A DNA stretch of 64,000 nucleotides, taken from IMG/VR virus record IMGVR_UViG_3300025671_000038. The stretch is one strand, 5' to 3'. The DNA is from a virus. The translations under genes were made by a program, and so were the position numbers. Below the pieces are notes generated by a model that saw nothing but the letters and a program-made list of their open reading frames with translations, was not told the origin of the DNA and did no database searches. This document shows positions 32,792 to 58,973 of the stretch, piece by piece; positions within the stretch are counted from its first letter, which is position 1; the number at the start of each line of letters is the position of its first letter.

Positions 32792-33382
32792 CTATTCTAT
32801 TAAAAAATCAGACCAATCCTTGCCACTTACATCCTCGTTAGGAAAATAAAATTCCAGTTTCTGTTCACCCACTAGTATGATCTTCGTAAATCCAACCGGA
32901 AGTGCTGCACCATACTCCAGTATTTGTGGAGAGGGGCCAAAGTGTACTATGATTTGTACTTCCACGTTACCAAATACCTTGGCAAGGTCTCTTTCGAACC
33001 TCTCCAGCTCCTTCCATGGACCCCTGTTTAACCCTTCGTGCTGAAGAGCACAGTTGAGATACGAGAAAGTTTTTCTAAGAGTTTCCTTATCACAGTTGAA
33101 AGCTGCAGCAGGAGCTAAATGTCCCTTATCCCATACGTTATTTTTGTAATCGTCGTTGTCTGAAGTGTGGATCCCATCTACCTCTCTGAAGTCCATCCCC
33201 TTCCTGGATGCATTACCGGTTGGGCATTCCACATCATACCAAAGCTCAAGCGGTTGCTCCAAGATTTCCGAATATCTGACCTTAAAAATATCGGTTATGA
33301 TGGTGTCTCCGGAAATAGTATAATCCTGAGCCAGGATATTTCCCGTTGCGATCAGGGATAATAATAGAATCTTGATCTTCAT
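32792..33382 (-). CDS. secreted DNA/RNA non-specific endonuclease (NucA-like)
   Basis: Signal peptide; DKGHLAPAA, FSYLN...Q...LNRGPW..LE. Confidence 0.88.
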   Translation of the reverse strand: MKIKILLLSLIATGNILAQDYTISGDTIITDIFKVRYSEILEQPLELWYDVECPTGNASRKGMDFREVDGIHTSDNDDYKNNVWDKGHLAPAAAFNCDKETLRKTFSYLNCALQHEGLNRGPWKELERFERDLAKVFGNVEVQIIVHFGPSPQILEYGAALPVGFTKIILVGEQKLEFYFPNEDVSGKDWSDFLIE

Positions 33383-33814: not shown

Positions 33815-34852
33815 TTAGTTGCTTAAAGGGGCTTGTATTGCCGGGTGTGACTCGTAACCATCCAGTATAAAGTCCTTCACTCTAAGTATATCAATAATGC
33901 TATCGAAATCCTTTAGATGGTCTTTAAAAAGTATTCTGGGCAAATCAAAAGGCTCTCTACGGATCTGCTCCTTTGCTTGCTGAATGTGATCGTTGTAGAG
34001 ATGAACGTCCCCCAAGTTACCTACTAATTCCCAGGGAACCATATTGACTTCCTTTGCGATTATCTCGAGGAGGAGACCATAAGATGCTATGTTGAAAGGT
34101 AGCCCAAGAAAAGTATCTACAGATCTCTGGTTCCACATTAAAGAAAGCTTCCTTCTGGGGGCTTTTACAGAATCCATCTTTTCGTGGCTCATATTTTGAG
34201 TAAAACTCTTATCCTTATCGATGATGATAGCCCACTGTTCCTGTCTTTCTTCCTCTTCCATCTCGGTAGTGTAGCACTGAAATCCGTAGTGACACGGAGG
34301 TAGGGTCATTTTTCCCAGCTCCCCTACGTTCCAGGAGTTAACCATAAGTCTTCTGCTGTCCGGATTTTCCTTCAGATCCCTTACTAGGTTTTTTATCTGG
34401 TCTATGTATAGGTGATCCCTGTCTTGCCAACTTCTCCACTGCTTACCGTAGATAGGACCTAGTTCGCCCCATTTCTTGGCAAACTCGTCATCGGTTTTAA
34501 TCTTTTCGATAAACTCATTTTTTGACAAAACAAAATCATGAGGTGGTATTCCAGGTGTAGTTTCTTTATCCAAGTATGCTTTGTATGCATCACCATTCCA
34601 AATGTTACATCCATTATCCACCAGGTACTTAATATTGGTATCTCCTCTTAAAAACCACAGTAACTCGGTTACCATAGTTCTGAATGCCATTTTCTTCGTG
34701 GTTAAAAGGGGATAACCCTCGGACATCCTGTGCCTGATCTGTCTGCCAAATACCGAGATAGTTCCAGTACCTGTGCGGTCTGATTTCTCAACCCCGTGGG
34801 TTATGATGTCCATTAGTAAACCTTGGTATTGGGTATCTAAGTTGTTCCTCAT
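33815..34852 (-). CDS. thyA: thymidylate synthase
   Basis: DRTGTGT, PLLTTKK, LGPIYG.QWR, SRR, LPPCH, QRSVDTFLGLPFN, D.HLY..H. Confidence 0.97.
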   Translation of the reverse strand: MRNNLDTQYQGLLMDIITHGVEKSDRTGTGTISVFGRQIRHRMSEGYPLLTTKKMAFRTMVTELLWFLRGDTNIKYLVDNGCNIWNGDAYKAYLDKETTPGIPPHDFVLSKNEFIEKIKTDDEFAKKWGELGPIYGKQWRSWQDRDHLYIDQIKNLVRDLKENPDSRRLMVNSWNVGELGKMTLPPCHYGFQCYTTEMEEEERQEQWAIIIDKDKSFTQNMSHEKMDSVKAPRRKLSLMWNQRSVDTFLGLPFNIASYGLLLEIIAKEVNMVPWELVGNLGDVHLYNDHIQQAKEQIRREPFDLPRILFKDHLKDFDSIIDILRVKDFILDGYESHPAIQAPLSN

Positions 34853-44011: not shown

Positions 44012-45076
44012 TTATTCTTGTAGAGAAACTTCGTTGTTTAGCTCGAGAATCCCATCCATATATGCGGTAATTAGATATGGATCTGCATTAGATCCGGGTC
44101 TTCTATCTTCCAGGTACCCCCTCCAATCTTTTGCAGTAGTAATTGGGACTCTTATAGAAGCTCCACGATCGCTAAATCCCCAGGAGAATTTTTCTATGCT
44201 CTGAGTTTCGTGATCTCCTGTTAGTCTTTGGTCGTTGTCAGACCCATATATTTCTATAGCCTCAGAGTGTGTATTTTCCAAAGATTTGAATATTGATTCG
44301 AAGAGATCTTTACCACCAACATCTCTCATCAGAGAATTTGAGAAATTCACGTGCATTCCGGAGCCATTCCAATCTTCCCCCCTTCCCATAGGCTTCGGGT
44401 GAAAGTCGACCTTGACTCGATATTTTTCTGCAATTCTTTGTAGAAGAAATCTAGAAATCCATAGATCGTCTGCTGCATTTTTATTTCCCTCACCGAAAAC
44501 CTGATACTCCCATTGTCCAAGCATCACCTCCGCATTGGTTCCGGTAATATTTATCCCGCAAGATAAACATGCATCCATGTGCTCGTCAGAAATTTCTCTC
44601 CCCGCACTGTATGGATGTCCAACGGAACAGTAGTATTTTCCTTGCTTTTCCGGTGGATTGAAGTTTTCAAATCCGAGAGGCATGTTGTCCTTTCTATTAA
44701 ACCACCTTAGAACATATTCCTGTTCAAAACCAAACCAGTTATCTTCTCCCTCAGATCCTATGGTAGATCTGGTGTTGGTCTCGTGTGGACTTCCATCCGG
44801 ATTGAGAACCTCACACATAACAATGTACGAAAATCCTCCTCTAATTGGATCTGGGTATAATTTTACGGGATTTAGTATGCAGTCCGAAGAATTCCCCTCT
44901 GCTTGCATCGTAGAGCTTCCGTCGAAAGACCATTGGGGTATGTCTTCTAACTTTGGCATGATTAGGGATATGGGATTTTCTATGTCGCCTCCAAAATCGG
45001 CTACTTTAACCTTGGATCTCAAATTTGGCTCCGGTTTGTAACCATCTAGCCAAACGTATTCTAATTTCATCTTCAT
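44012..45076 (-). CDS. glnII: glutamine synthetase type II
   Basis: EYVWLDG, LRSK, WSFDGSST, EQEY, NAEVM.GQWEYQ, DWNGSGMH, RGASIRVP, YLEDRRP. Confidence 0.95.
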   Translation of the reverse strand: MKMKLEYVWLDGYKPEPNLRSKVKVADFGGDIENPISLIMPKLEDIPQWSFDGSSTMQAEGNSSDCILNPVKLYPDPIRGGFSYIVMCEVLNPDGSPHETNTRSTIGSEGEDNWFGFEQEYVLRWFNRKDNMPLGFENFNPPEKQGKYYCSVGHPYSAGREISDEHMDACLSCGINITGTNAEVMLGQWEYQVFGEGNKNAADDLWISRFLLQRIAEKYRVKVDFHPKPMGRGEDWNGSGMHVNFSNSLMRDVGGKDLFESIFKSLENTHSEAIEIYGSDNDQRLTGDHETQSIEKFSWGFSDRGASIRVPITTAKDWRGYLEDRRPGSNADPYLITAYMDGILELNNEVSLQE

Positions 45077-46055: not shown

Positions 46056-46325
46056 TTAATTGAGAATAAGTGGTGTAACATCATCTATATGGACAATGTA
46101 GAACTCTCCACTTTCTAGATTTGATAGGACCACGTCGGTCGAACTAGAACTTCCTAATAGCTTGTGATTCTCTTGGAGAAAGATAAATTCCGATCCAAGA
46201 TGGGATTGCTCAAGTTTAGATCTCCTCATCCACTTGCTTTGATTCCTGAGATAGAGGTCTTCATAATATTTCCTCATCGATTCGGTTGGCTTCTTAATCT
46301 TCCGTGGTTTCTTCTTTAGATCCAT
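46056..46325 (-). CDS. hypothetical protein
   Basis: 89 aa; overlaps the upstream GT. Confidence 0.45.
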   Translation of the reverse strand: MDLKKKPRKIKKPTESMRKYYEDLYLRNQSKWMRRSKLEQSHLGSEFIFLQENHKLLGSSSSTDVVLSNLESGEFYIVHIDDVTPLILN

Positions 46326-47268
46326 TTTCGTAATATCCCTTATTTTTAAGAACTTTCAAATATTCTATGATCGATTCTACCTCTTGTTTCCTCTTTTCCC
46401 CATGAAGAACCTTTATATCTTTTTTATCGTCGGGTATTCTGTAGAAATCCGAGATTAGCCCCCGTTCCGAATCATCGCCCTCAAAAAAATGTCTTACCGT
46501 GCTCATCCCTTCTATATTGATATAGGACATCGGTAATCCACCTCCTCCGTTTTTCCATACAAGTGTATTCATTACACTTTCGTCCTGGAAGGGGGAGTAT
46601 TCATAAACATCTACCACCTTCCATAGAACATTTAGCATTTCCTCAAGCACCACCAGAAAATCCCGGCACCTCTGATTAAATATGAAGAGATTACCTGTTC
46701 TATACTCATCCCTCGCATCGAGAGGAACCTGTAAGAATTTCATAAGCGGGTACTCTATGGTTTTGGTTAGATCTCTTTCTGGCCAAGCCCCCTCAAATGG
46801 GTTACCCTTCTCATTTCCATCGTCGTCGATCACTAAGACAAACTCGTGGGGTCCTTTGGTCATTAGAGGAGTAGTCTTTATGAGGTTTGAATGCAAGAAT
46901 ATCTCATCTATATTTGGACAAGCTATACTGTCGCCGTCTATAAAGCAACATTCATCATATCCCATGTCCAGTACCCTAATGCAGGCTTCGGATTTCCTGG
47001 TCATTATCTGGAAGCTTCTTAGATTTTTCCGATCCACGTAAAAATTCCCTCCCTCCGTGTAGTGAAATATAGTACCGTCTTCGCTAATTTCATACTCTAT
47101 ATCATGGAATGAAACCCCAGCGGGTATTTCAAGCCCTTCCTTCCTCGGATTGTAGTTAATACAGAAGATGTGAATGGGATAATCAGAGAACTCCGATATG
47201 CTCTTAGCTAGAAGGACGGAGAGGTAATGATAATTTTTGGTTGTTATAGAAACGAAGCACCTTTTCAC
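46294..47268 (-). CDS. GT-A fold glycosyltransferase (GT8/GT77-like)
   Basis: CFIDGDSI (DxD), TGNLFIFN, QDESVMN, LHG. Confidence 0.75.
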   Translation of the reverse strand: MKRCFVSITTKNYHYLSVLLAKSISEFSDYPIHIFCINYNPRKEGLEIPAGVSFHDIEYEISEDGTIFHYTEGGNFYVDRKNLRSFQIMTRKSEACIRVLDMGYDECCFIDGDSIACPNIDEIFLHSNLIKTTPLMTKGPHEFVLVIDDDGNEKGNPFEGAWPERDLTKTIEYPLMKFLQVPLDARDEYRTGNLFIFNQRCRDFLVVLEEMLNVLWKVVDVYEYSPFQDESVMNTLVWKNGGGGLPMSYINIEGMSTVRHFFEGDDSERGLISDFYRIPDDKKDIKVLHGEKRKQEVESIIEYLKVLKNKGYYENGSKEETTED

Positions 47269-47272
47269 CGAA

Positions 47273-48274
47273 TCAGAATTTGTATATTGATAAAACTTCT
47301 CCCTTGGGAGATTTAGCCTCTACGTAGCCATCGTCTGGCACTTCACCCATATCAAAGTAGTAATACCCCGACCTTGAGAGGCTTTTGAAATCGAAAGTGT
47401 GGAGAGGGTTTCCTTCCTTGTCCTTATATCTTATTGTTACAGCCTCTATATTAGCCAGAGGGGAGAATGTAATTCTTCTGCCTGATTCGATTGTATCTTT
47501 ATGCCATTGCCCTATTAACCCCCCGGCAAATCCGGATAGCAATTTGAGTATCTCTACCCTCTCATCTCTAGCGTATGATGTCACATGAACTATGAAATCT
47601 CCGGGCTGCCAGAGATTCTCCACCATATGGGGAAAGGAGTGTATAATATAGGGGTTTTTAGGATACCAGAATCTATTTAATTTTTTCTCTTCAACTAGCT
47701 TAATCCCATTTCTCCAATGATCCTTTCGGTACGATAATCGGATCTGTCTCATCTCGTGGTCAAACTCACCAAGTCCCATTCCTTCTGGCCAGTCAGGAGC
47801 TTCCCATATCTCTTGTAGGAATTGTTTAGACTTTTCACAATTCTTTATCAGAATATGTGAAGACATGATGTTGTTATCCCTGTATCCTCCACCTATACCA
47901 TTATCTGGAGAGCCACCTCCCTTTGGCATTACAACAAACTCGTCACCCACGGGGATAAGATCCTCTAATTTTTTACCGAAATTCATGAATAGGCAATCAC
48001 AGTCTATAAAAAAGATCCACGGGTTTTCTACCTCGTCAAGCAATTTTCTTAGCAGCTTAATCTTTCCCCATTGAGCTGGTCTCCCCTCAAGAAACGATTC
48101 ATCTATCTTTTCCCCCCTGAGATCGTAATCATGAAGAGAGCAATACCCGGAAAAATTTCCATGTATGGTTATATCCGCCATACGAGAGTAGTGATCGTCA
48201 TACATGGAAACAACTAGGATCCTCCCGTCCTCGAGAGAATTGTATCCGATGGTCCACTCTACAGATTTCATCAT
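47273..48274 (-). CDS. GT34 (GMA12/MNN10-like) glycosyltransferase
   Basis: WGKIKLL, WIFFIDCDCLFMN, LIKN...S..FL..IW, WQPGDFIVH. Confidence 0.8.
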   Translation of the reverse strand: MMKSVEWTIGYNSLEDGRILVVSMYDDHYSRMADITIHGNFSGYCSLHDYDLRGEKIDESFLEGRPAQWGKIKLLRKLLDEVENPWIFFIDCDCLFMNFGKKLEDLIPVGDEFVVMPKGGGSPDNGIGGGYRDNNIMSSHILIKNCEKSKQFLQEIWEAPDWPEGMGLGEFDHEMRQIRLSYRKDHWRNGIKLVEEKKLNRFWYPKNPYIIHSFPHMVENLWQPGDFIVHVTSYARDERVEILKLLSGFAGGLIGQWHKDTIESGRRITFSPLANIEAVTIRYKDKEGNPLHTFDFKSLSRSGYYYFDMGEVPDDGYVEAKSPKGEVLSIYKF

Positions 48275-49065
48275 ATATTTTTCTGTTTTAATATTCCTTT
48301 CTCCTTATTAAAGCAGTGAAGTGATATTATGTGCATCGAATAATATCCGGGGGTGACTTTTTTCCACCTCTCTGGGTCTCTTTTCTGAAGAGATTCCAAT
48401 ATCCAGTACAATTTTCTACATGCTAAGTAAATATCGTCCCTAAAATGCCTTATGATATCGCAGGATCTGATGAAGTAGGCTATGTGAAAATTATTTCCCC
48501 TCCTCATAAAGTGATATCCAATCGTACACGGAACCCTCTCCTTATGGGGAGCCCCGGTATCTTCAGGAAACCAAATAGGCAAAAAAGCTTGCCTTGTAAA
48601 GGGTTCTCTTTCCAACATGTCCACTAAATCTGACAGGTCACCATATTCGAACCTAATTCCCTTTAGTGGGTTTCTCTTAACCTTACCGGTTAAGTTATCG
48701 ATTGGTGCCTTTTTTGGCCAGATCCTCTCCGGATAAGTGTGTGAAAACATCTCGTCCTTCTTGAACTGCTCGTTCTTCTTGCGGTTAAATGGCCACCATT
48801 CATTAGATGGCGGAGGGTTAAGAGGTAACCCACCGATTCTTTCCTGGAAGTGATCCTCCGCCCATGGTAAATTTGGGTTTACCTCAGCTATGAGTTCTTC
48901 CTGTGTGTTTGGAATAAACATCTGGAAGGAATGATTCATCACCTCCCACATATCATCCGGCGAAGGAACCCCTTGCCATCTCTCGGTTTCTACTACATAC
49001 CCGTGATTATAAAGTCTTTCCTTACTCCATTTAATTGCTTCGGATGGCTTGTAAAATGTTTTCAT
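48271..49065 (-). CDS. thymidylate-synthase homologue, dCMP hydroxymethylase/methylase-type
   Basis: TRQAFLPIW, VPCT (catalytic Cys), RSCDIIRHFRDD with Asp at the position of ThyA Asn, SLHCF. Confidence 0.72.
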   Translation of the reverse strand: MKTFYKPSEAIKWSKERLYNHGYVVETERWQGVPSPDDMWEVMNHSFQMFIPNTQEELIAEVNPNLPWAEDHFQERIGGLPLNPPPSNEWWPFNRKKNEQFKKDEMFSHTYPERIWPKKAPIDNLTGKVKRNPLKGIRFEYGDLSDLVDMLEREPFTRQAFLPIWFPEDTGAPHKERVPCTIGYHFMRRGNNFHIAYFIRSCDIIRHFRDDIYLACRKLYWILESLQKRDPERWKKVTPGYYSMHIISLHCFNKEKGILKQKNI

Positions 49066-49183: not shown

Positions 49184-49450
49184 CTAGTTTTTTATCTTCA
49201 TTCGATATTTGTTTTCTATCCATGACATCTCCATCTCGGCCTTGGTTCGGTCGCAGTCGGAAATTGACATGATTGAGTTTACCCCGTACTCTAGCCATTC
49301 CTGATATTCCCTTTTAGTGAGTGATTTCGTATTCTGCCAGAACGGGTTTTTCCTAACATCCTCTCTTGTTAAACCGAGATAATTCAGGTGTCTTTCCTGG
49401 AGGAGGTTCATGATAACATCTTCCTTTTTATTGGTACTAGAAGAACTCAT
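49184..49450 (-). CDS. hypothetical protein
   Basis: 88 aa ORF. Confidence 0.5.
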   Translation of the reverse strand: MSSSSTNKKEDVIMNLLQERHLNYLGLTREDVRKNPFWQNTKSLTKREYQEWLEYGVNSIMSISDCDRTKAEMEMSWIENKYRMKIKN

Positions 49451-49536: not shown

Positions 49537-49947
49537 TTATGCCTGTTGATCAGCATTAGTCTTCGTTTGAGAGTCTCCCCTCCACACTCTATATGAGTCT
49601 GAGTCAAAGTGTTCGGTTGATACCTCATACACTACACCGTCTTCCAAAGCTTCCAATTGGTGAGGCTGTCCAGGTCTCTGTCTAACGGAATCTCCTACTC
49701 TTAGTTGAACCTCATTAACTTCTGCAGTTTCGGTGTCAATCCATCTATAAATGAAAGATCCCTCTTGGACATACCAGGTCTCATCCTTTATCATGTGATA
49801 GTGCATTGAAAATTTGGCACCTTTTTTAAAGCAGAGAAGCTTCCCGCAGTAGAGCTCGTTATTTTCGAAAATTATTTCATGTCCCCATCCTTTGGGTACA
49901 TTACACCCTGAGCATTCGATTGCATTAAATACGTGTGGTTTTTCCAT
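49537..49947 (-). CDS. cupin (sugar isomerase/epimerase-like)
   Basis: KGWGHE, SMHYH..KDETWYV..G, PHQL, EVST. Confidence 0.82.
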   Translation of the reverse strand: MEKPHVFNAIECSGCNVPKGWGHEIIFENNELYCGKLLCFKKGAKFSMHYHMIKDETWYVQEGSFIYRWIDTETAEVNEVQLRVGDSVRQRPGQPHQLEALEDGVVYEVSTEHFDSDSYRVWRGDSQTKTNADQQA

Positions 49948-50088: not shown

Positions 50089-50511
50089 TTATTTTAATAG
50101 TAATTCTTGAAGCATATCCAAGTATCTAGGGAGAATCCTTACACTTGCCTCTTCATATGTCATGAATTTAGCATCGTCGATTTCTTCTAATTGTAGCATA
50201 CTCTGCGGAATAATTTCACCCGACAGGTCTAACTCAGAAAGTGATTCAACTCGGTATTCATAAATAAATACCTCCTTGAAAATCTTTTTAGCCCTGATGT
50301 AATTGATCTTAAATTCCCTGCCCAATGAATCTATAGGTACGCTTATCCCTACCTCTTCCATGGTTTCCCTACATGCGGCTTCCTTATTAGACTCCCCATC
50401 CTCCACGTGGCCCTTGGGTGGCATATAACTTTTAAACCATCTAGATTTGACGCTGTGGCACAGTAGTATTTTATTTCCACATACTATGGCTATCCCCGCC
50501 GACTTTTCCAT
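50089..50511 (-). CDS. Nudix hydrolase
   Basis: PKGHVEDGESNKEAACRETMEEVG Nudix box. Confidence 0.92.
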   Translation of the reverse strand: MEKSAGIAIVCGNKILLCHSVKSRWFKSYMPPKGHVEDGESNKEAACRETMEEVGISVPIDSLGREFKINYIRAKKIFKEVFIYEYRVESLSELDLSGEIIPQSMLQLEEIDDAKFMTYEEASVRILPRYLDMLQELLLK

Positions 50512-50550: not shown

Positions 50551-52077
50551 TCAGCTTGTTCCGCGATCAAAGTAATAATTTGCTACTTCCCTTCCTTGAC
50601 CGAAATTTTCATAGACCCTGATGTGATATGTGTTTACATCGATTTTATCTTTAGCTGATCCAAGATCAAGAAAATGCATATCACACACATCATCCGGAGG
50701 AATAAGGGGGAAATCCCAGTATATGAAATGATTACCTCCATTATCAAAAAGAACGACCCTTACATTCTCCATTGGCTCCAATGGATGCATAAAAATTTTA
50801 CCCTCTGCTGGGTCGTAACTCCAAGACCCTATAATTCCACCCCTATAATTCCCCGCACGCTCCATAAACAAAATCTTCTCGCTCTTGCTATATCCGGAGA
50901 ATTTAACTATAAAATCCCCCGGATTCCAGGAATTCTTATTTATGTGCTTAGCAAGAAGAACCTTAGCAATATGTGGGTTGGGCCAATAAGAAACAAGGAG
51001 TCTTTGCTTTAAATATTTAATGCCATGCTTCAGATTGTTGTCAGTGGAGAAATTCTCAATAAAATTGTATTCATAGTCCGGTAACTCTATTCCCTTCCCT
51101 GGATACGAAAGATTCCCATACATCCTATCGAAGCAGATCCTTTCAAGTAGAAGGATGGACTCCTGGCATTTTCTAATTAATAGGGGAAAAGAGGTATTAT
51201 CCCCTGGGAGTATCATGAAATAATCGTCATCTATGTAGTCCTCAATCTTCCTTGTGGTGTTCATGAATATGGAATCGGGATCGACACACAAGATCCAATC
51301 TCCCTCTTCGCAATATTTCAGCTGATCTAAGATGGACCTAAATTTTCCTCCCCCTGTATTGCGAACAGTTTTTAATTCGTAGTTGTGTACACTGCAGTAG
51401 TATTTAAAATTCTCGAGAGATTTTCCATCCTTCATAATGTCCCACTCAGAATTATCATAGAAACATATGACTGATATGGACCTTTTCTTGACGAACTTGA
51501 AATCTTGTCCCCTATATTCATCCAAGATGTATCCGTTGGATTCCAATTTCCTAGTTATCGAGTTAAGCTGATCCCTCCGGTCGTCATTAAAATCAGCCCG
51601 ATATTCAAAAATTATAACCTCAGGAAAAACCTTACCGTAATCAATCAGTGCTTCTACTACGTCCAAATCATGCCCCTCGAGGTCAGTTTTAAATATCCCG
51701 ATTTGCGTTACCTGGTTTGTTTCTAGTATTTCAGATATTGGAACCTTTTGGATTGGCAATTTCTCGTAGAGGTGTTCTATGTTTCTTTTCCTGAGTTCCT
51801 CCAATAGAGGTGGGTTTGGAATGTCTATACTGGAGCATCCTCTGGCCCAGGATGGGAGTTCATATCTTTCTATGGTTTCCTCTGAAACTGTGAATAGAAA
51901 AGAATCCCCGGCAGAATCTGATACAGCTGCACATATTTTTTTTACGTTGGATTTATCAGGCAAATTGTCGAGGTATCCCTGGACCACGTCTATGGTAATT
52001 CCATTTTGCCAATCATAGCAGGTTTGATGCAGGGTATTAAAATCACAGCTCCCTACCTCCACGAAATCATATTTCAT
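50551..52077 (-). CDS. FkbM-like methyltransferase fused to GT34-like glycosyltransferase
   Basis: N: VEVGSCD, KTDLEGHD, FEY; C: WILCVDPDSIFMN, WNPGDFIV. Confidence 0.75.
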   Translation of the reverse strand: MKYDFVEVGSCDFNTLHQTCYDWQNGITIDVVQGYLDNLPDKSNVKKICAAVSDSAGDSFLFTVSEETIERYELPSWARGCSSIDIPNPPLLEELRKRNIEHLYEKLPIQKVPISEILETNQVTQIGIFKTDLEGHDLDVVEALIDYGKVFPEVIIFEYRADFNDDRRDQLNSITRKLESNGYILDEYRGQDFKFVKKRSISVICFYDNSEWDIMKDGKSLENFKYYCSVHNYELKTVRNTGGGKFRSILDQLKYCEEGDWILCVDPDSIFMNTTRKIEDYIDDDYFMILPGDNTSFPLLIRKCQESILLLERICFDRMYGNLSYPGKGIELPDYEYNFIENFSTDNNLKHGIKYLKQRLLVSYWPNPHIAKVLLAKHINKNSWNPGDFIVKFSGYSKSEKILFMERAGNYRGGIIGSWSYDPAEGKIFMHPLEPMENVRVVLFDNGGNHFIYWDFPLIPPDDVCDMHFLDLGSAKDKIDVNTYHIRVYENFGQGREVANYYFDRGTS

Positions 52078-52093
52078 ACCAATGGGAGGATTT

Positions 52094-52924
52094 TTATTCG
52101 GAGGCTGAGACTGCTCTACCTTTCATTTTTTCCCAATCCCTCTCCGGTCTTACCTCCAGGTTGGTTTTCCACCCGCCTTCTATAGTGTTCAAAGGAGCAC
52201 CAGCTTCCCTTGCAAAGGAAATCATTGCATTAACATCTTTGGGAAAACAAGTTCCCCCATATCCCATTTTCCCGTCTGGTCCGGGAACATGGAGGTGTGA
52301 ATCACCAACTCTACCGTCGGAAGCGAATCCATGAATAGCATCGTCCCAATTAATTCCTATCACTTTACCAAGTCTGTGGAATTCGTTCATCATAGACACC
52401 TTGGTTGCAAAAAAGGTGTTATTCATATACTTGATATACTCCGCTGTTGTAGAATCTGTGTAGATGATATGCTTATTCATGAATCTCTCTGAAAATAGCT
52501 CCCCTACCTCACGTGTAAAATTCTCATCACCCCCAAGGATAATCCTCGCCTGTGTCAATATGTCAAGCTTTGCTGTCCTCTCTGTTAGAAATTCAGGTGA
52601 GAATATTATCCGGTATCCAAATTTATCTATAAGACTCCTTGTTGTCCCTGGTAGCACAGTCGACTTTATGATGAATATGGAATCTGGTGAGGGTATAACG
52701 GATTCGAAGAAATCCTCAATAAAAGATAAATCTTGTGTTCCGTCGGATCTCATCGGAGTTGGCAAACAAACAAAGATGTACTTCTGTTCTAATACTTCTG
52801 CTAGATCGTGTGTCCTCCTCTTTTTATCTATGTCGTAAACTCTAACATCAGCGACGGGGGAAAAGGCGAAAGCCTGTGCTTCTCCGACAAACCCATTGCC
52901 TACAACTCCTACTGTTTTTTTCAT
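52094..52924 (-). CDS. UDP-glucose/GDP-mannose dehydrogenase family (short form)
   Basis: GNGFVG, FVCLPTP, KSTVLPG, SPEFL, KYMNNTF.A.K, GYGGTCFPKD; C-terminal domain absent. Confidence 0.88.
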   Translation of the reverse strand: MKKTVGVVGNGFVGEAQAFAFSPVADVRVYDIDKKRRTHDLAEVLEQKYIFVCLPTPMRSDGTQDLSFIEDFFESVIPSPDSIFIIKSTVLPGTTRSLIDKFGYRIIFSPEFLTERTAKLDILTQARIILGGDENFTREVGELFSERFMNKHIIYTDSTTAEYIKYMNNTFFATKVSMMNEFHRLGKVIGINWDDAIHGFASDGRVGDSHLHVPGPDGKMGYGGTCFPKDVNAMISFAREAGAPLNTIEGGWKTNLEVRPERDWEKMKGRAVSASE

Positions 52925-52935
52925 ATTTGTAGATT

Positions 52936-53769
52936 TTATTTTTTGTACATTAAATCAAGACTTTCCTTATAGTCCCTTATCCTATCCTTTATTTCCTTTC
53001 TCGGATTCCATCCGGGAAGTCTTCTATTGACATCAGCACAGGTTAAAAATTGATATCCTGTTGGTATTTTCTCCTCGGTCGTGTAGGTGTAAGGTATACC
53101 AAATATGGTCATGAAGTCTTCGAAATAGCAAGGGGTTCCAGTCCCTATGTCCCAGGTAGTTCCTGTTCTAACTTCCTCCATGGCGACTATATTAGCACTA
53201 ACGATATCGTCCACGTGGATAAAATCACGCATAGGCTTTTTAGGAAATAACTCCATGACGTCAAGGGACTTCTCTACATAAAATTTATAGTAAGCCTGGT
53301 ATGCTACGGAGGCCATCCTACCCTTATTTTGCTCACCAGGTCCGAAAACATTGAAATATCTTAGACAAACGGCTGCTGACATTCCATGGAGAAATCCCTC
53401 TGCACTATATTTTGACCAAGCATACAAGTTTGAAGGCTTTTCCCCGTCGGTTCCGTAACAAGCTGCAGAAGACGAATAAACCATCTTGACTCCATATTGC
53501 ATACACAAATCTCCCAGATATTTGGAAAACTCGTAATTGAGGAACATCATGTAATTTACATCTTGGTTCAGTGTGTCTGAACAAGCACCTACATGAAAAA
53601 CCCCATCCAGGCTTACCCCCTTAAATATATTCTCAAGAGCTTCTTTCCAATCCGGCCTCATGACATCTTCCTCCTCGAAAGAAAATACCGAATTTCCCTG
53701 GACCATCAGGGTATCCTTTAGATTGCTTCCTATAAATCCAACGGATCCGGTAACCAAGTAGTTCTTCAT
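52936..53769 (-). CDS. ADP-L-glycero-D-manno-heptose 6-epimerase-like SDR (HldD/RfaD-like)
   Basis: GSVGFIGS, FHVGACSDT, YSSSAACYG, P.NLYAWSK, LRYFNVFGP.E..KGRMASV. Confidence 0.85.
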   Translation of the reverse strand: MKNYLVTGSVGFIGSNLKDTLMVQGNSVFSFEEEDVMRPDWKEALENIFKGVSLDGVFHVGACSDTLNQDVNYMMFLNYEFSKYLGDLCMQYGVKMVYSSSAACYGTDGEKPSNLYAWSKYSAEGFLHGMSAAVCLRYFNVFGPGEQNKGRMASVAYQAYYKFYVEKSLDVMELFPKKPMRDFIHVDDIVSANIVAMEEVRTGTTWDIGTGTPCYFEDFMTIFGIPYTYTTEEKIPTGYQFLTCADVNRRLPGWNPRKEIKDRIRDYKESLDLMYKK

Positions 53770-58873: not shown

Positions 58874-58901
58874 TCCCGTGATTTGTAATTATTAATCCTA
58901 G

Positions 58902-58973
58902 TAGCCCCGCCAGGAATCGAACCTGGATCTAAAATTTAGGAAATTCTTATTCTATCCGTTGAACTACGGGGCC
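58902..58973 (-). tRNA. tRNA-Arg (anticodon CCU), CCA not encoded
   Basis: GGCCCCG/CGGGGCT acceptor stem, D-arm, AGAAT-TTCCTAA-ATTTT anticodon arm, GGTTCGATTCC T-arm. Confidence 0.95.

Follow-up and report, generated by a model that had tools for sequence, protein, structure and literature searches.

Bacteriophages T4, RB69, DLP3 and RL38J1 are the worked examples of a design in which a thymidylate synthase (TS) homologue is combined with a glycosyltransferase (GT) (PMC13326640), and about 25,000 GT-containing contigs, a minority of them with the GT beside ThyS or 5mYOX, have been mined from metaviromes and metagenomes (10.1101/2023.12.21.572611). In the TS homologues, a change of Asn177 to Asp (ThyA numbering) selects deoxycytidine monophosphate (dCMP), and positions 147 and 177 separate modified-cytosine from unmodified contigs (PMC8670742); flavin-dependent 5-hydroxy-dCMP synthases are marked by a change of Asp169 to Asn, and hydroxymethyl products are associated with an acidic position 143 (PMC13326640). 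We analysed a stretch of viral DNA, IMG/VR record IMGVR_UViG_3300025671_000038, over its whole length of 64,000 nucleotides (the window), in which an open reading frame (ORF) at 48271-49065 encodes a TS homologue and is followed directly by genes for a GT34-family and a GT8-like glycosyltransferase. The original prediction, made from the letters of the window, had proposed that this phage makes modified dCMP and may decorate it by means of the two GTs.

A pre-replicative modified-cytosine pathway, and a genome with modified cytosine, most likely 5-hydroxymethylcytosine (5hmC), are well supported by the findings below. The reading that we prefer as a whole, to which we give a probability of roughly 45%, is that the TS homologue makes modified dCMP and that the GT pair acts on an acceptor other than DNA. 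A dCTPase resembling T4 gp56 would return deoxycytidine triphosphate (dCTP) to dCMP, and the product of ORF 48271-49065, working most likely like T4 gp42, would add a one-carbon unit, most probably hydroxymethyl, to C5 of dCMP. A kinase and the phage polymerase would then place the modified base in DNA instead of C, with the canonical ThyA making thymidine monophosphate (dTMP) in parallel. The GT34 and GT8-like genes would be a mobile glycan-building pair, inserted only in this sub-lineage into the slot between the TS gene and a small conserved gene, and would form part of a wide glycan toolkit that places an O-methylated glycan on, for example, a virion protein or host surface molecule; their position beside the TS gene would reflect a hot spot of cassette insertion.

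A second TS homologue with a dCMP-type active site

The ORF was found as the original prediction had described it, with the catalytic Pro-Cys, RSxD and Asp at the position of ThyA Asn177, and a canonical ThyA of the deoxyuridine monophosphate (dUMP) type is present besides, which makes the TS homologue an additional, non-redundant enzyme. Its key residues are Tyr111, Arg177, Cys180, Thr181, Arg200, Ser201, Asp203 and Asp211; the catalytic stretch reads ERVPCTI and the specificity loop RSCDIIRHFRDD, the last Asp of which (counted from Arg) stands at the Asn177 position. Sequence methods barely detect the protein as a TS, since its PF00303 score of 18.2 bits did not reach the Pfam gathering cut-off of 24.3, despite its match to phrog_160 (Table 1). 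A predicted model, built with 29 homologues in the input (predicted local distance difference test score, pLDDT, 78.7), showed the TS fold across the entire protein, matching 7/7 PDB representatives of TS-fold clusters at Z 16.5-18.6, with the top non-TS match at only Z 4.4. Within that range the model scored Z 18.6 against both MilA and the flavin-dependent dCMP hydroxylase 9iqc, Z 16.5-17.8 against ThyA structures and Z 16.5 against T4 dCMP hydroxymethylase.

The active-site motifs are not a matter of chance, as ERVPC[TS] and RSCD..RH.[RK]DD were kept in 62/62 distinct homologues (80 viral loci, 50-89% identity). In the clade alignment Cys180 of the Pro-Cys pair and Arg200, Ser201, Asp203 and Tyr111, the equivalents of ThyA Arg166, Ser167, Asp169 and Tyr94, are invariant. 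The clade profile aligned with MilA without gaps through the active site, with Cys180-Thr181 on Cys-Thr and Asp211 on the specificity Asp. In the profile comparison with T4 gp42 the active site aligned (hhalign E 6.5e-4), with Asp211 on the residue that corresponds to ThyA Asn177 and a Thr next to the catalytic Cys; the hhalign probability was 27.6% and the identity only about 21-24%. Against the window's own ThyA only 42 columns were matched (E 0.21), so the clade is too distant from ThyA for a trustworthy tree of the superfamily.

Hydride transfer in TS takes place in a ternary complex that the C-terminal segment closes. The number of residues that follow the ThyA His207/Tyr209 equivalent (SLHCF in the ORF) is 12 in the ORF, 28 in T4 gp42 and 59 in ThyA, and about 60 residues follow AHAHLY, which aligns with ThyA DVHLY, in the Xp12 5-methyl-dCMP synthase; the long tails are thus those of the two enzymes that form a methyl group. 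In clade representatives the clade profile likewise terminates near the C-terminus, and the ThyA-type lid is missing, which is also the case in T4 dCMP hydroxymethylase.

At the positions used in the published rules the TS homologue has Arg143, Thr147, Asp169 (Asp203 in its own numbering, invariant) and Asp177. By the last three it is of dCMP type and, with the D169N mark absent, no 5-hydroxylase. Position 143 leaves the product undecided; the rule for that position is not strict, as by the same count Asn stands there in the proven Xp12 methylase. The enzyme is very probably specific for dCMP, 5-hydroxymethyl-dCMP would be the product that we favour, and 5-methyl-dCMP (5mdCMP), or something else again, appears an unlikely one.

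The claim that the phage makes modified dCMP gained support from the invariant Asp177, the Cys-Thr pair, the FR.D loop and the missing lid, and also from the relatives, where a T4 gp56-like dCTPase was found in 5/5 related phage records tested (30-40% identity, E 5e-20 to 1e-26). In the closest relative (TS identity 89%) some 50 kb separate the dCTPase gene from the TS gene. A trimeric dUTPase had been tried as a candidate in five relatives with PF00692 and gave no match; it was the T4 gp56 protein as query that did. Searching the window by tblastn with a dUTPase-like protein, NT5C, thymidylate kinase and dCMP deaminase from related or cultured phages gave no matches.

The clade was surveyed among 1.84 billion representative proteins (E <= 1e-30, clusters at 50% identity) and comprises 166 representative clusters, with 231 viral contigs in one scan. 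It is uncharacterised, restricted to phages and common across metaviromes, and we found no experimental product assignment for it in the literature. Cultured carriers are phages of Gordonia, Streptomyces, Serratia and Yersinia, and the members from KimJongPhill (Streptomyces), Opt-155 (Serratia) and P744 (Yersinia) show 40-47% identity. A megablast search with 10 kb of the window against 50,697 phage records gave zero matches, so there is no close cultured relative. Several clade members (P0046, P0054, P0061 and others) are 360-420 aa long and match the profile in two stretches, which fits an insertion of about 130 aa, and one of 636 aa may hold an intein. In Yersinia phage P744 the TS gene is preceded by an ORF with the annotation 'pyrimidine hmase synthase'; it showed no similarity to TS and was set aside.

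These cultured members bear on a different reading, in which the enzyme would make a terminal modification without a free hydroxyl (5mdCMP, as in Xp12) or some other product, and the GTs, unable to act on such a base, would be unrelated neighbours. In KimJongPhill, Opt-155 and P744 the gene order kinase / NTP-pyrophosphatase / TS / dCMP deaminase / PolA resembles Xp12, and Asp177 alone does not split methyl from hydroxymethyl products, 5-methyldeoxycytidine (5mdC) having been made by five of the seven deaminase-linked N177D homologues tested (10.1101/2024.12.05.627091). The non-acidic residue at the Leu143 position points the same way, as do the complete genomes of the larger sub-lineage described below, in which both the GT8-like gene and a carbamoyltransferase are missing. 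The known 5mdCMP synthases (Xp12 and PaMx-type), however, form another, ThyA-like clade with a GLPYD loop, where the ORF reads RHFRDD, and with a lid of about 60 residues. The Xp12-type arrangement is an adjacent dCMP deaminase with no separate ThyA, whereas in the window tblastn found no deaminase near the gene and ThyA is present, so that a route to dTTP by deamination of 5mdC is not needed. We consider this reading improbable, less so for the methyl product itself than for the whole.

The glycosyltransferase pair and the slot behind the TS gene

The gene junctions were as originally predicted: the last 4 nt of the TS gene are also the first of the GT34 gene (ATGA; junction ATATGATGA), and four nucleotides, TTCG, separate the GT34 stop from the GTG start of the GT8-like gene, the 3' end of which overlaps an 89-aa ORF. 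The GT34 assignment was confirmed by PF05637 and the GT-A assignment by structure, as the GT8-like protein had no Pfam (E up to 1, including PF01501), PHROG or NCBIfam match. Its model (pLDDT 85.7) has a retaining GT-A fold, with Z 16.0 against LgtC, Z 15.5 against glycogenin, Z 15.5 against BoGT6a and Z 14.2 against A064R, the capsid glycosyltransferase of PBCV-1, and both Asp111 and Asp113 of its DxD motif (FIDGDSI) are invariant. Its homologues fall into 41 clusters, none of them named, and the nearest named Atlas cluster is a GT8 of giant viruses.

The top viral structural matches of the GT8-like protein were proteins of 936-985 aa whose annotation includes an FkbM methyltransferase or GT1 domain, and elsewhere the GT8-like domain has GT34 as its neighbour or as its fusion partner, the fused proteins being 870-1030 aa long. 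In L002 and L003 FkbM and the orthologue of the window GT34 are fused, the latter forming the C-terminal half, and the fusion gene stands directly after TS. Proteins of 870-1030 aa with a GT8-like domain were seen in L093 (9998-13072), L095 (9998-13090), L104 (2532-5144; a giant-virus bin contig, GVMAG) and L121 (8852-11665), with a GT34-like part also in those of L093, L104 and L121; no TS homologue is near, and the proteins look like multidomain glycan synthases of the A064R kind.

Synteny was compared in 80 viral loci with a homologue of the TS clade. The majority, sub-lineage A, has the order metallophosphatase / TS / o89 / o74 / o126 without sugar genes. Sub-lineage B, which includes the window, has Nudix, cupin, o88 and often an Endonuclease_NS gene upstream, and a variable cassette between TS and o89. 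The 89-aa ORF follows the TS gene or the cassette in 44/80 loci, and its product may act together with the TS enzyme. The cassette of L001, the closest relative, is the GT8-like gene alone, giving a minimal TS and GT8-like pair; L002 and L003 have FkbM-GT34 and GT8-like genes where the window has GT34 and GT8-like. L030 and L031 carry FkbM / 373 aa / GT2 / DegT aminotransferase / GNAT / CmcI-type methyltransferase / 308 aa / GT8-like, L034 a TylF-type methyltransferase and an ATP-grasp enzyme with the GT8-like gene at the end, and L044 FkbM / GDP-mannose-dehydratase-like / GT11. Wherever a TS-adjacent cassette holds the GT8-like gene, it is the final gene.

These cassettes bear on an alternative, in line with the original prediction, that keeps the same enzyme and differs in the acceptor, namely a full T4-style pathway in which 5hmC in DNA would receive its first sugar from the GT8-like enzyme after replication and GT34 would extend it. 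The dehydrogenase, short-chain dehydrogenase/reductase (SDR) and cupin of the neighbourhood would supply an unusual UDP-sugar, FkbM would methylate, and relatives would swap cassettes to vary the glycan. The TS, GT34 and GT8-like genes are translationally coupled, and a GT gene adjoins the gene of the enzyme that would make the acceptor base (overlap and gap of 4 nt), as would be expected of a phage DNA glycosyltransferase. The minimal pair of L001 and the longer cassettes in the same slot of L002, L030, L034 and L044 fit as well, and A064R-like GT8-like GT-A enzymes add second sugars to 5hmC glycans (10.1101/2023.12.21.572611). In L025, L028, L002 and L030 an Endonuclease_NS gene precedes the dCMP-type TS gene at a distance of one to three genes, which would fit degradation of unmodified host DNA with the phage DNA protected.

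The distribution of the GTs tells against such a pathway. Roughly 65/80 of the related loci have no such GT gene adjoining TS, the GT8-like family was found nowhere in the complete genomes of sub-lineage A (0/7), although that sub-lineage has TS and dCTPase, and the slot also accepts small non-sugar ORFs (L012, L025). In the reverse direction, among 80 viral loci with a GT8-like relative the TS clade lay within 10 kb in nine, all of one lineage, and in further GT8-like records it was found anywhere in 0/24, with a positive control of 5/5. Eight of the ten near-complete genomes among those records have no TS-family gene at all, 5mYOX/TET enzymes not having been searched for. The GT8-like family is thus mostly independent of a dCMP-type TS. 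The TS-coupled DNA glycosyltransferases proven to date, moreover, all have the GT-B fold (PMC13326640). The GT8-like protein is very acidic (isoelectric point, pI, 4.9; net charge -19), a weak argument, for with pI 6.1 for T4 α-GT and 9.05 for β-GT the α-GT itself is mildly acidic, so that the overall charge of a protein says little about whether its acceptor is DNA.

A quick IQ-TREE phylogeny of the GTs placed the TS-linked ones and six TS-less rows in one supported clade. The TS-linked GTs form two sub-clades about 36% identical to each other, from which we take it that the GT gene has been long retained or repeatedly recruited, a point in favour of a role in the T4-style pathway. Nested among the TS-linked rows is the 97%-complete, 476-kb L088, whose sole TS is of dUMP type (RSNDYIMAGYIN); this speaks, like the multidomain fusions and the fold match to A064R, for an acceptor other than DNA. 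A 316-kb phage, L175 (G011:252000-253400), has a T4 gp42-like dCMP-type TS (RSNDVIRGFHTD) of a different clade from ORF 48271-49065 and also carries a distant GT8-like/GT34 fusion, about 40 kb from that TS.

FkbM genes were present, at varied positions, in 22/27 TS-clade phage records, and with sugar genes scattered as they are this points to a broad glycan programme independent of the TS gene. An FkbM ORF of 645-656 aa was seen 8-10 kb downstream of TS in jumbo phages of sub-lineage A (G028:~168785, G029:~155140, G037:~158113, G043:~161170).

Several observations weigh against the preferred reading, some touching its enzymatic half and others the non-DNA acceptor. Arg177, three residues before the catalytic Cys, occupies the position of ThyA Leu143, at which known hydroxymethylases carry Asp or Glu (Asp in both MilA and gp42); it is invariant in the clade and makes the product uncertain. 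Neither a dCTPase nor a deoxynucleoside monophosphate (dNMP) kinase was found within the 64-kb window. As to the acceptor, carbamoyltransferase genes occur in 3-4/27 TS-clade records, and that of L002 (5054-6727 (+), equal to G030:20268-21248; 557 aa, with a second copy on the contig) lies three genes upstream of TS; its substrate could be 5hmC or a sugar, and one member of the family carbamoylates 5hmC (PMC8670742). At least five versions of the cassette occupy one slot, a non-random position. Wherever TS-clade records hold a close GT8-like relative, it sits in the cassette directly after TS (7/7) and nowhere else in 90-220 kb, and in T4 gene 42 is directly followed by β-gt; the cassette placement and the T4 order are the best evidence for a functional link between TS and GT. 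In every studied phage in which a GT adjoins a dCMP-type TS homologue, finally, the GT acts on DNA (PMC13326640).

With these points set against the distribution of the GT8-like family, we hold the T4-style pathway to be a serious, if tentative, alternative to a GT pair acting on a non-DNA acceptor. The proposed decoration of the modified base by GT34 and GT-A enzymes thus came out as only possible: TS-adjacent cassettes in one sub-lineage and the T4 order speak for it, and the loci without a GT, the empty sub-lineage A and a GT family mostly without dCMP-type TS speak against it. The synteny check in relatives that had been suggested with it divided likewise, with 7/7 TS-clade records on one side and 9/80 GT loci, with 0/24 others, on the other. 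More doubtful still is a wider form of the idea, by which in one lineage of large phages of Bacteroidota type a new dCMP hydroxymethylase clade would anchor a swappable cassette that builds varied glycans on 5hmC DNA. Within this scheme the GT8-like enzyme would perhaps act first, followed by GT34, GT2 or GT11, to give O-methylated, aminated or pentose-containing glycans. Close relatives might then differ in their DNA glycans, with the GT34 and GT8-like folds conceivably recruited anew as DNA glycosyltransferases of a pre-replicative pathway.

DNA hypermodification governs how readable a phage genome is to restriction enzymes, CRISPR nucleases and sequencing chemistries. If the cassettes act on DNA, they add GT-A/GT34 chemistry and a natural cassette swapping for DNA glycan variation; if they do not, as in the reading that we prefer, the locus is a caution that a GT gene next to a TS gene is not enough to predict glycosylation of DNA. 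The active site, with Arg at the Leu143 position, departs from the published rules, and assigning the product would put those rules to the test as well as give hundreds of phage genomes an annotation.

Other genes of the window

Every gene between about 30 and 62 kb lies on the minus strand (Table 1). The Nudix, cupin, sugar dehydrogenase and heptose-epimerase-like genes that the original prediction had listed upstream of the TS gene were confirmed by family matches, and a GNAT/PIG-L fusion gene lies on the same strand upstream of the heptose-epimerase-like SDR. The Nudix protein could be a nucleotide or NDP-sugar pyrophosphatase, and a Nudix gene is near TS also in relatives without a GT cassette (L023, L025, L032, L044). 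The short dehydrogenase is without the C-terminal UDP-binding domain, a form also seen in L001, L083 and L084. Other sugar genes scattered in the window are two GT25 genes, a second FkbM, a SDR resembling GDP-mannose dehydratase (GMD) and a PIG-L domain.

Table 1. Coordinates and family assignments of the genes discussed, in the numbering of the window
Feature	Coordinates	Strand	Length	Matches and motifs	Remarks
TS-fold enzyme, dCMP-type active site, probable dCMP C5-hydroxymethylase	48271..49065	-	264 aa	phrog_160 1.2e-23	
Canonical ThyA, dUMP type	33815..34852	-	345 aa	PF00303 1.8e-94; reads RSVDTFLGLPFN	full C-terminal lid
GT34-family glycosyltransferase	47273..48274	-	333 aa	PF05637 1.6e-11, 44.9 bits (cut-off 23); DCD in FFIDCDCLF	
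Retaining GT-A glycosyltransferase, GT8/GT6-like	46294..47268	-	324 aa	DGD motif	GTG start; virus-restricted
Small basic protein (pI 9.2)	46056..46325	-	89 aa	no family match	conserved downstream border of the variable slot
Small conserved ORF between cupin and TS gene	49184..49450	-	88 aa	no family match	restricted to the sugar-island sub-lineage
Cupin, sugar isomerase/epimerase-like, WbuC type	49537..49947	-		PF07883 8.6e-9; TIGR04366 2e-4	
Nudix hydrolase	50089..50511	-		PF00293 7.8e-14; top NCBIfam MutT/YtkD-like	Nudix box intact
FkbM methyltransferase fused to a second GT34 domain	50551..52077	-	508 aa	PF05050 3.3e-6; PF05637 3.2e-4	
Short nucleotide-sugar dehydrogenase	52094..52924	-	276 aa	TIGR03026 5.3e-50; two Pfam domains	Rossmann motif GNGFVG and catalytic motif GGTCFPKD kept
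SDR epimerase/dehydratase, ADP-heptose-6-epimerase-like	52936..53769	-		PF01370 9.6e-28; TIGR02197 1.1e-46	
Non-specific DNA/RNA endonuclease (Endonuclease_NS)	32792-33382	-		PF01223	
GlnII-type glutamine synthetase	44012-45076	-		NF041605 7e-107	unusual phage auxiliary gene
tRNA-Arg, anticodon CCT	58901-58973	-			

In the canonical ThyA a charged stretch (EEEERQEQ...KAPRR), about 40-50 residues long, is inserted after the catalytic Cys and before RSVD. The GlnII gene stands at the same place in L001, L002 and L025. Scans of the window for sigma-70 promoters and intrinsic terminators showed no excess over shuffled controls. By eye, a (G)ATATATA(A/G)-like motif recurs 15-40 nt upstream of minus-strand genes (32462, 42974, 45076, 45749), and the TS gene has a weaker form, TGTATAAAG, 22 nt upstream of its start; the TATATA-like motif may represent a class of phage promoter that would define transcription units.

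Comparison with described systems

To call the pathway new, as the original prediction did, was an overstatement, since clusters of TS homologue and GT had already been mined from metaviromes (10.1101/2023.12.21.572611). The overall design is not new; what can credibly be called new are an uncharacterised clade of TS homologues whose active site is unusual, the presence of GT-A/GT34 enzymes next to TS where GT-B enzymes are otherwise found, and the swapping of cassettes in one slot.

T4 gp42 is resembled in the TS fold, Asp177, Cys-Thr, the FR.D loop, the short C-terminus and a GT gene directly downstream, and T4 also has a separate ThyA (td) and, as in the relatives of the window, the gp56 dCTPase. 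The window clade differs in its low identity and profile probability, given above, in Arg instead of Asp at the Leu143 position and in a conserved insertion of about 60 residues (PNLPWA...HTYPERIWP), and its GTs (GT34, GT8-like) are GT-A where those of T4 are GT-B. MilA, the CMP 5-hydroxymethylase of mildiomycin biosynthesis (5jnh/5b6d), is one of two structural matches tied for the best (220 residues, root-mean-square deviation 2.8) and one of the best by profile, its Cys-Thr and specificity Asp both aligning. Its substrate, however, is a ribonucleotide, Asp stands at its Leu143 position, it carries an extra C-terminal region, and it belongs to a bacterial antibiotic pathway.

The 5-hydroxy-dCMP synthases of RB69, DLP3 and HY126 (9iqc) match in fold as well as MilA does, are of similar size and dCMP type, and have adjacent GT and sugar-nucleotide genes (PMC13326640), whereas they carry the Asp169-to-Asn change where Asp203 is invariant here, and their GTs, arabinosyltransferases, are GT-B (PMC13326640). 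With the Xp12 and PaMx-type 5-methyl-dCMP synthases, whose phages replace DNA cytosine completely, the clade shares Asp177 and, in its cultured members, the deaminase neighbourhood; they form a separate clade (27% identity over 89 residues) with the GLPYD loop and a full C-terminal lid.

The clusters of Pyle et al. (10.1101/2023.12.21.572611) likewise combine a base-activating ThyS or 5mYOX with GT-A/GT-B enzymes and sugar-tailoring genes, and A064R-like GT8-like GT-A enzymes there add the secondary sugars. The GTs tested in that work were 5mYOX-dependent and GT34 was not reported (10.1101/2023.12.21.572611), whereas in the window it is synteny that links the GTs to TS, in a GT family mostly unlinked to it. 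PBCV-1 A064R, finally, shares the GT-A fold of the GT8-like protein (Z 14.2), relatives of which are fused with GT34, GT1 and FkbM in proteins of 870-1030 aa; in the window, by contrast, the domains are separate genes beside a nucleotide-modifying enzyme.

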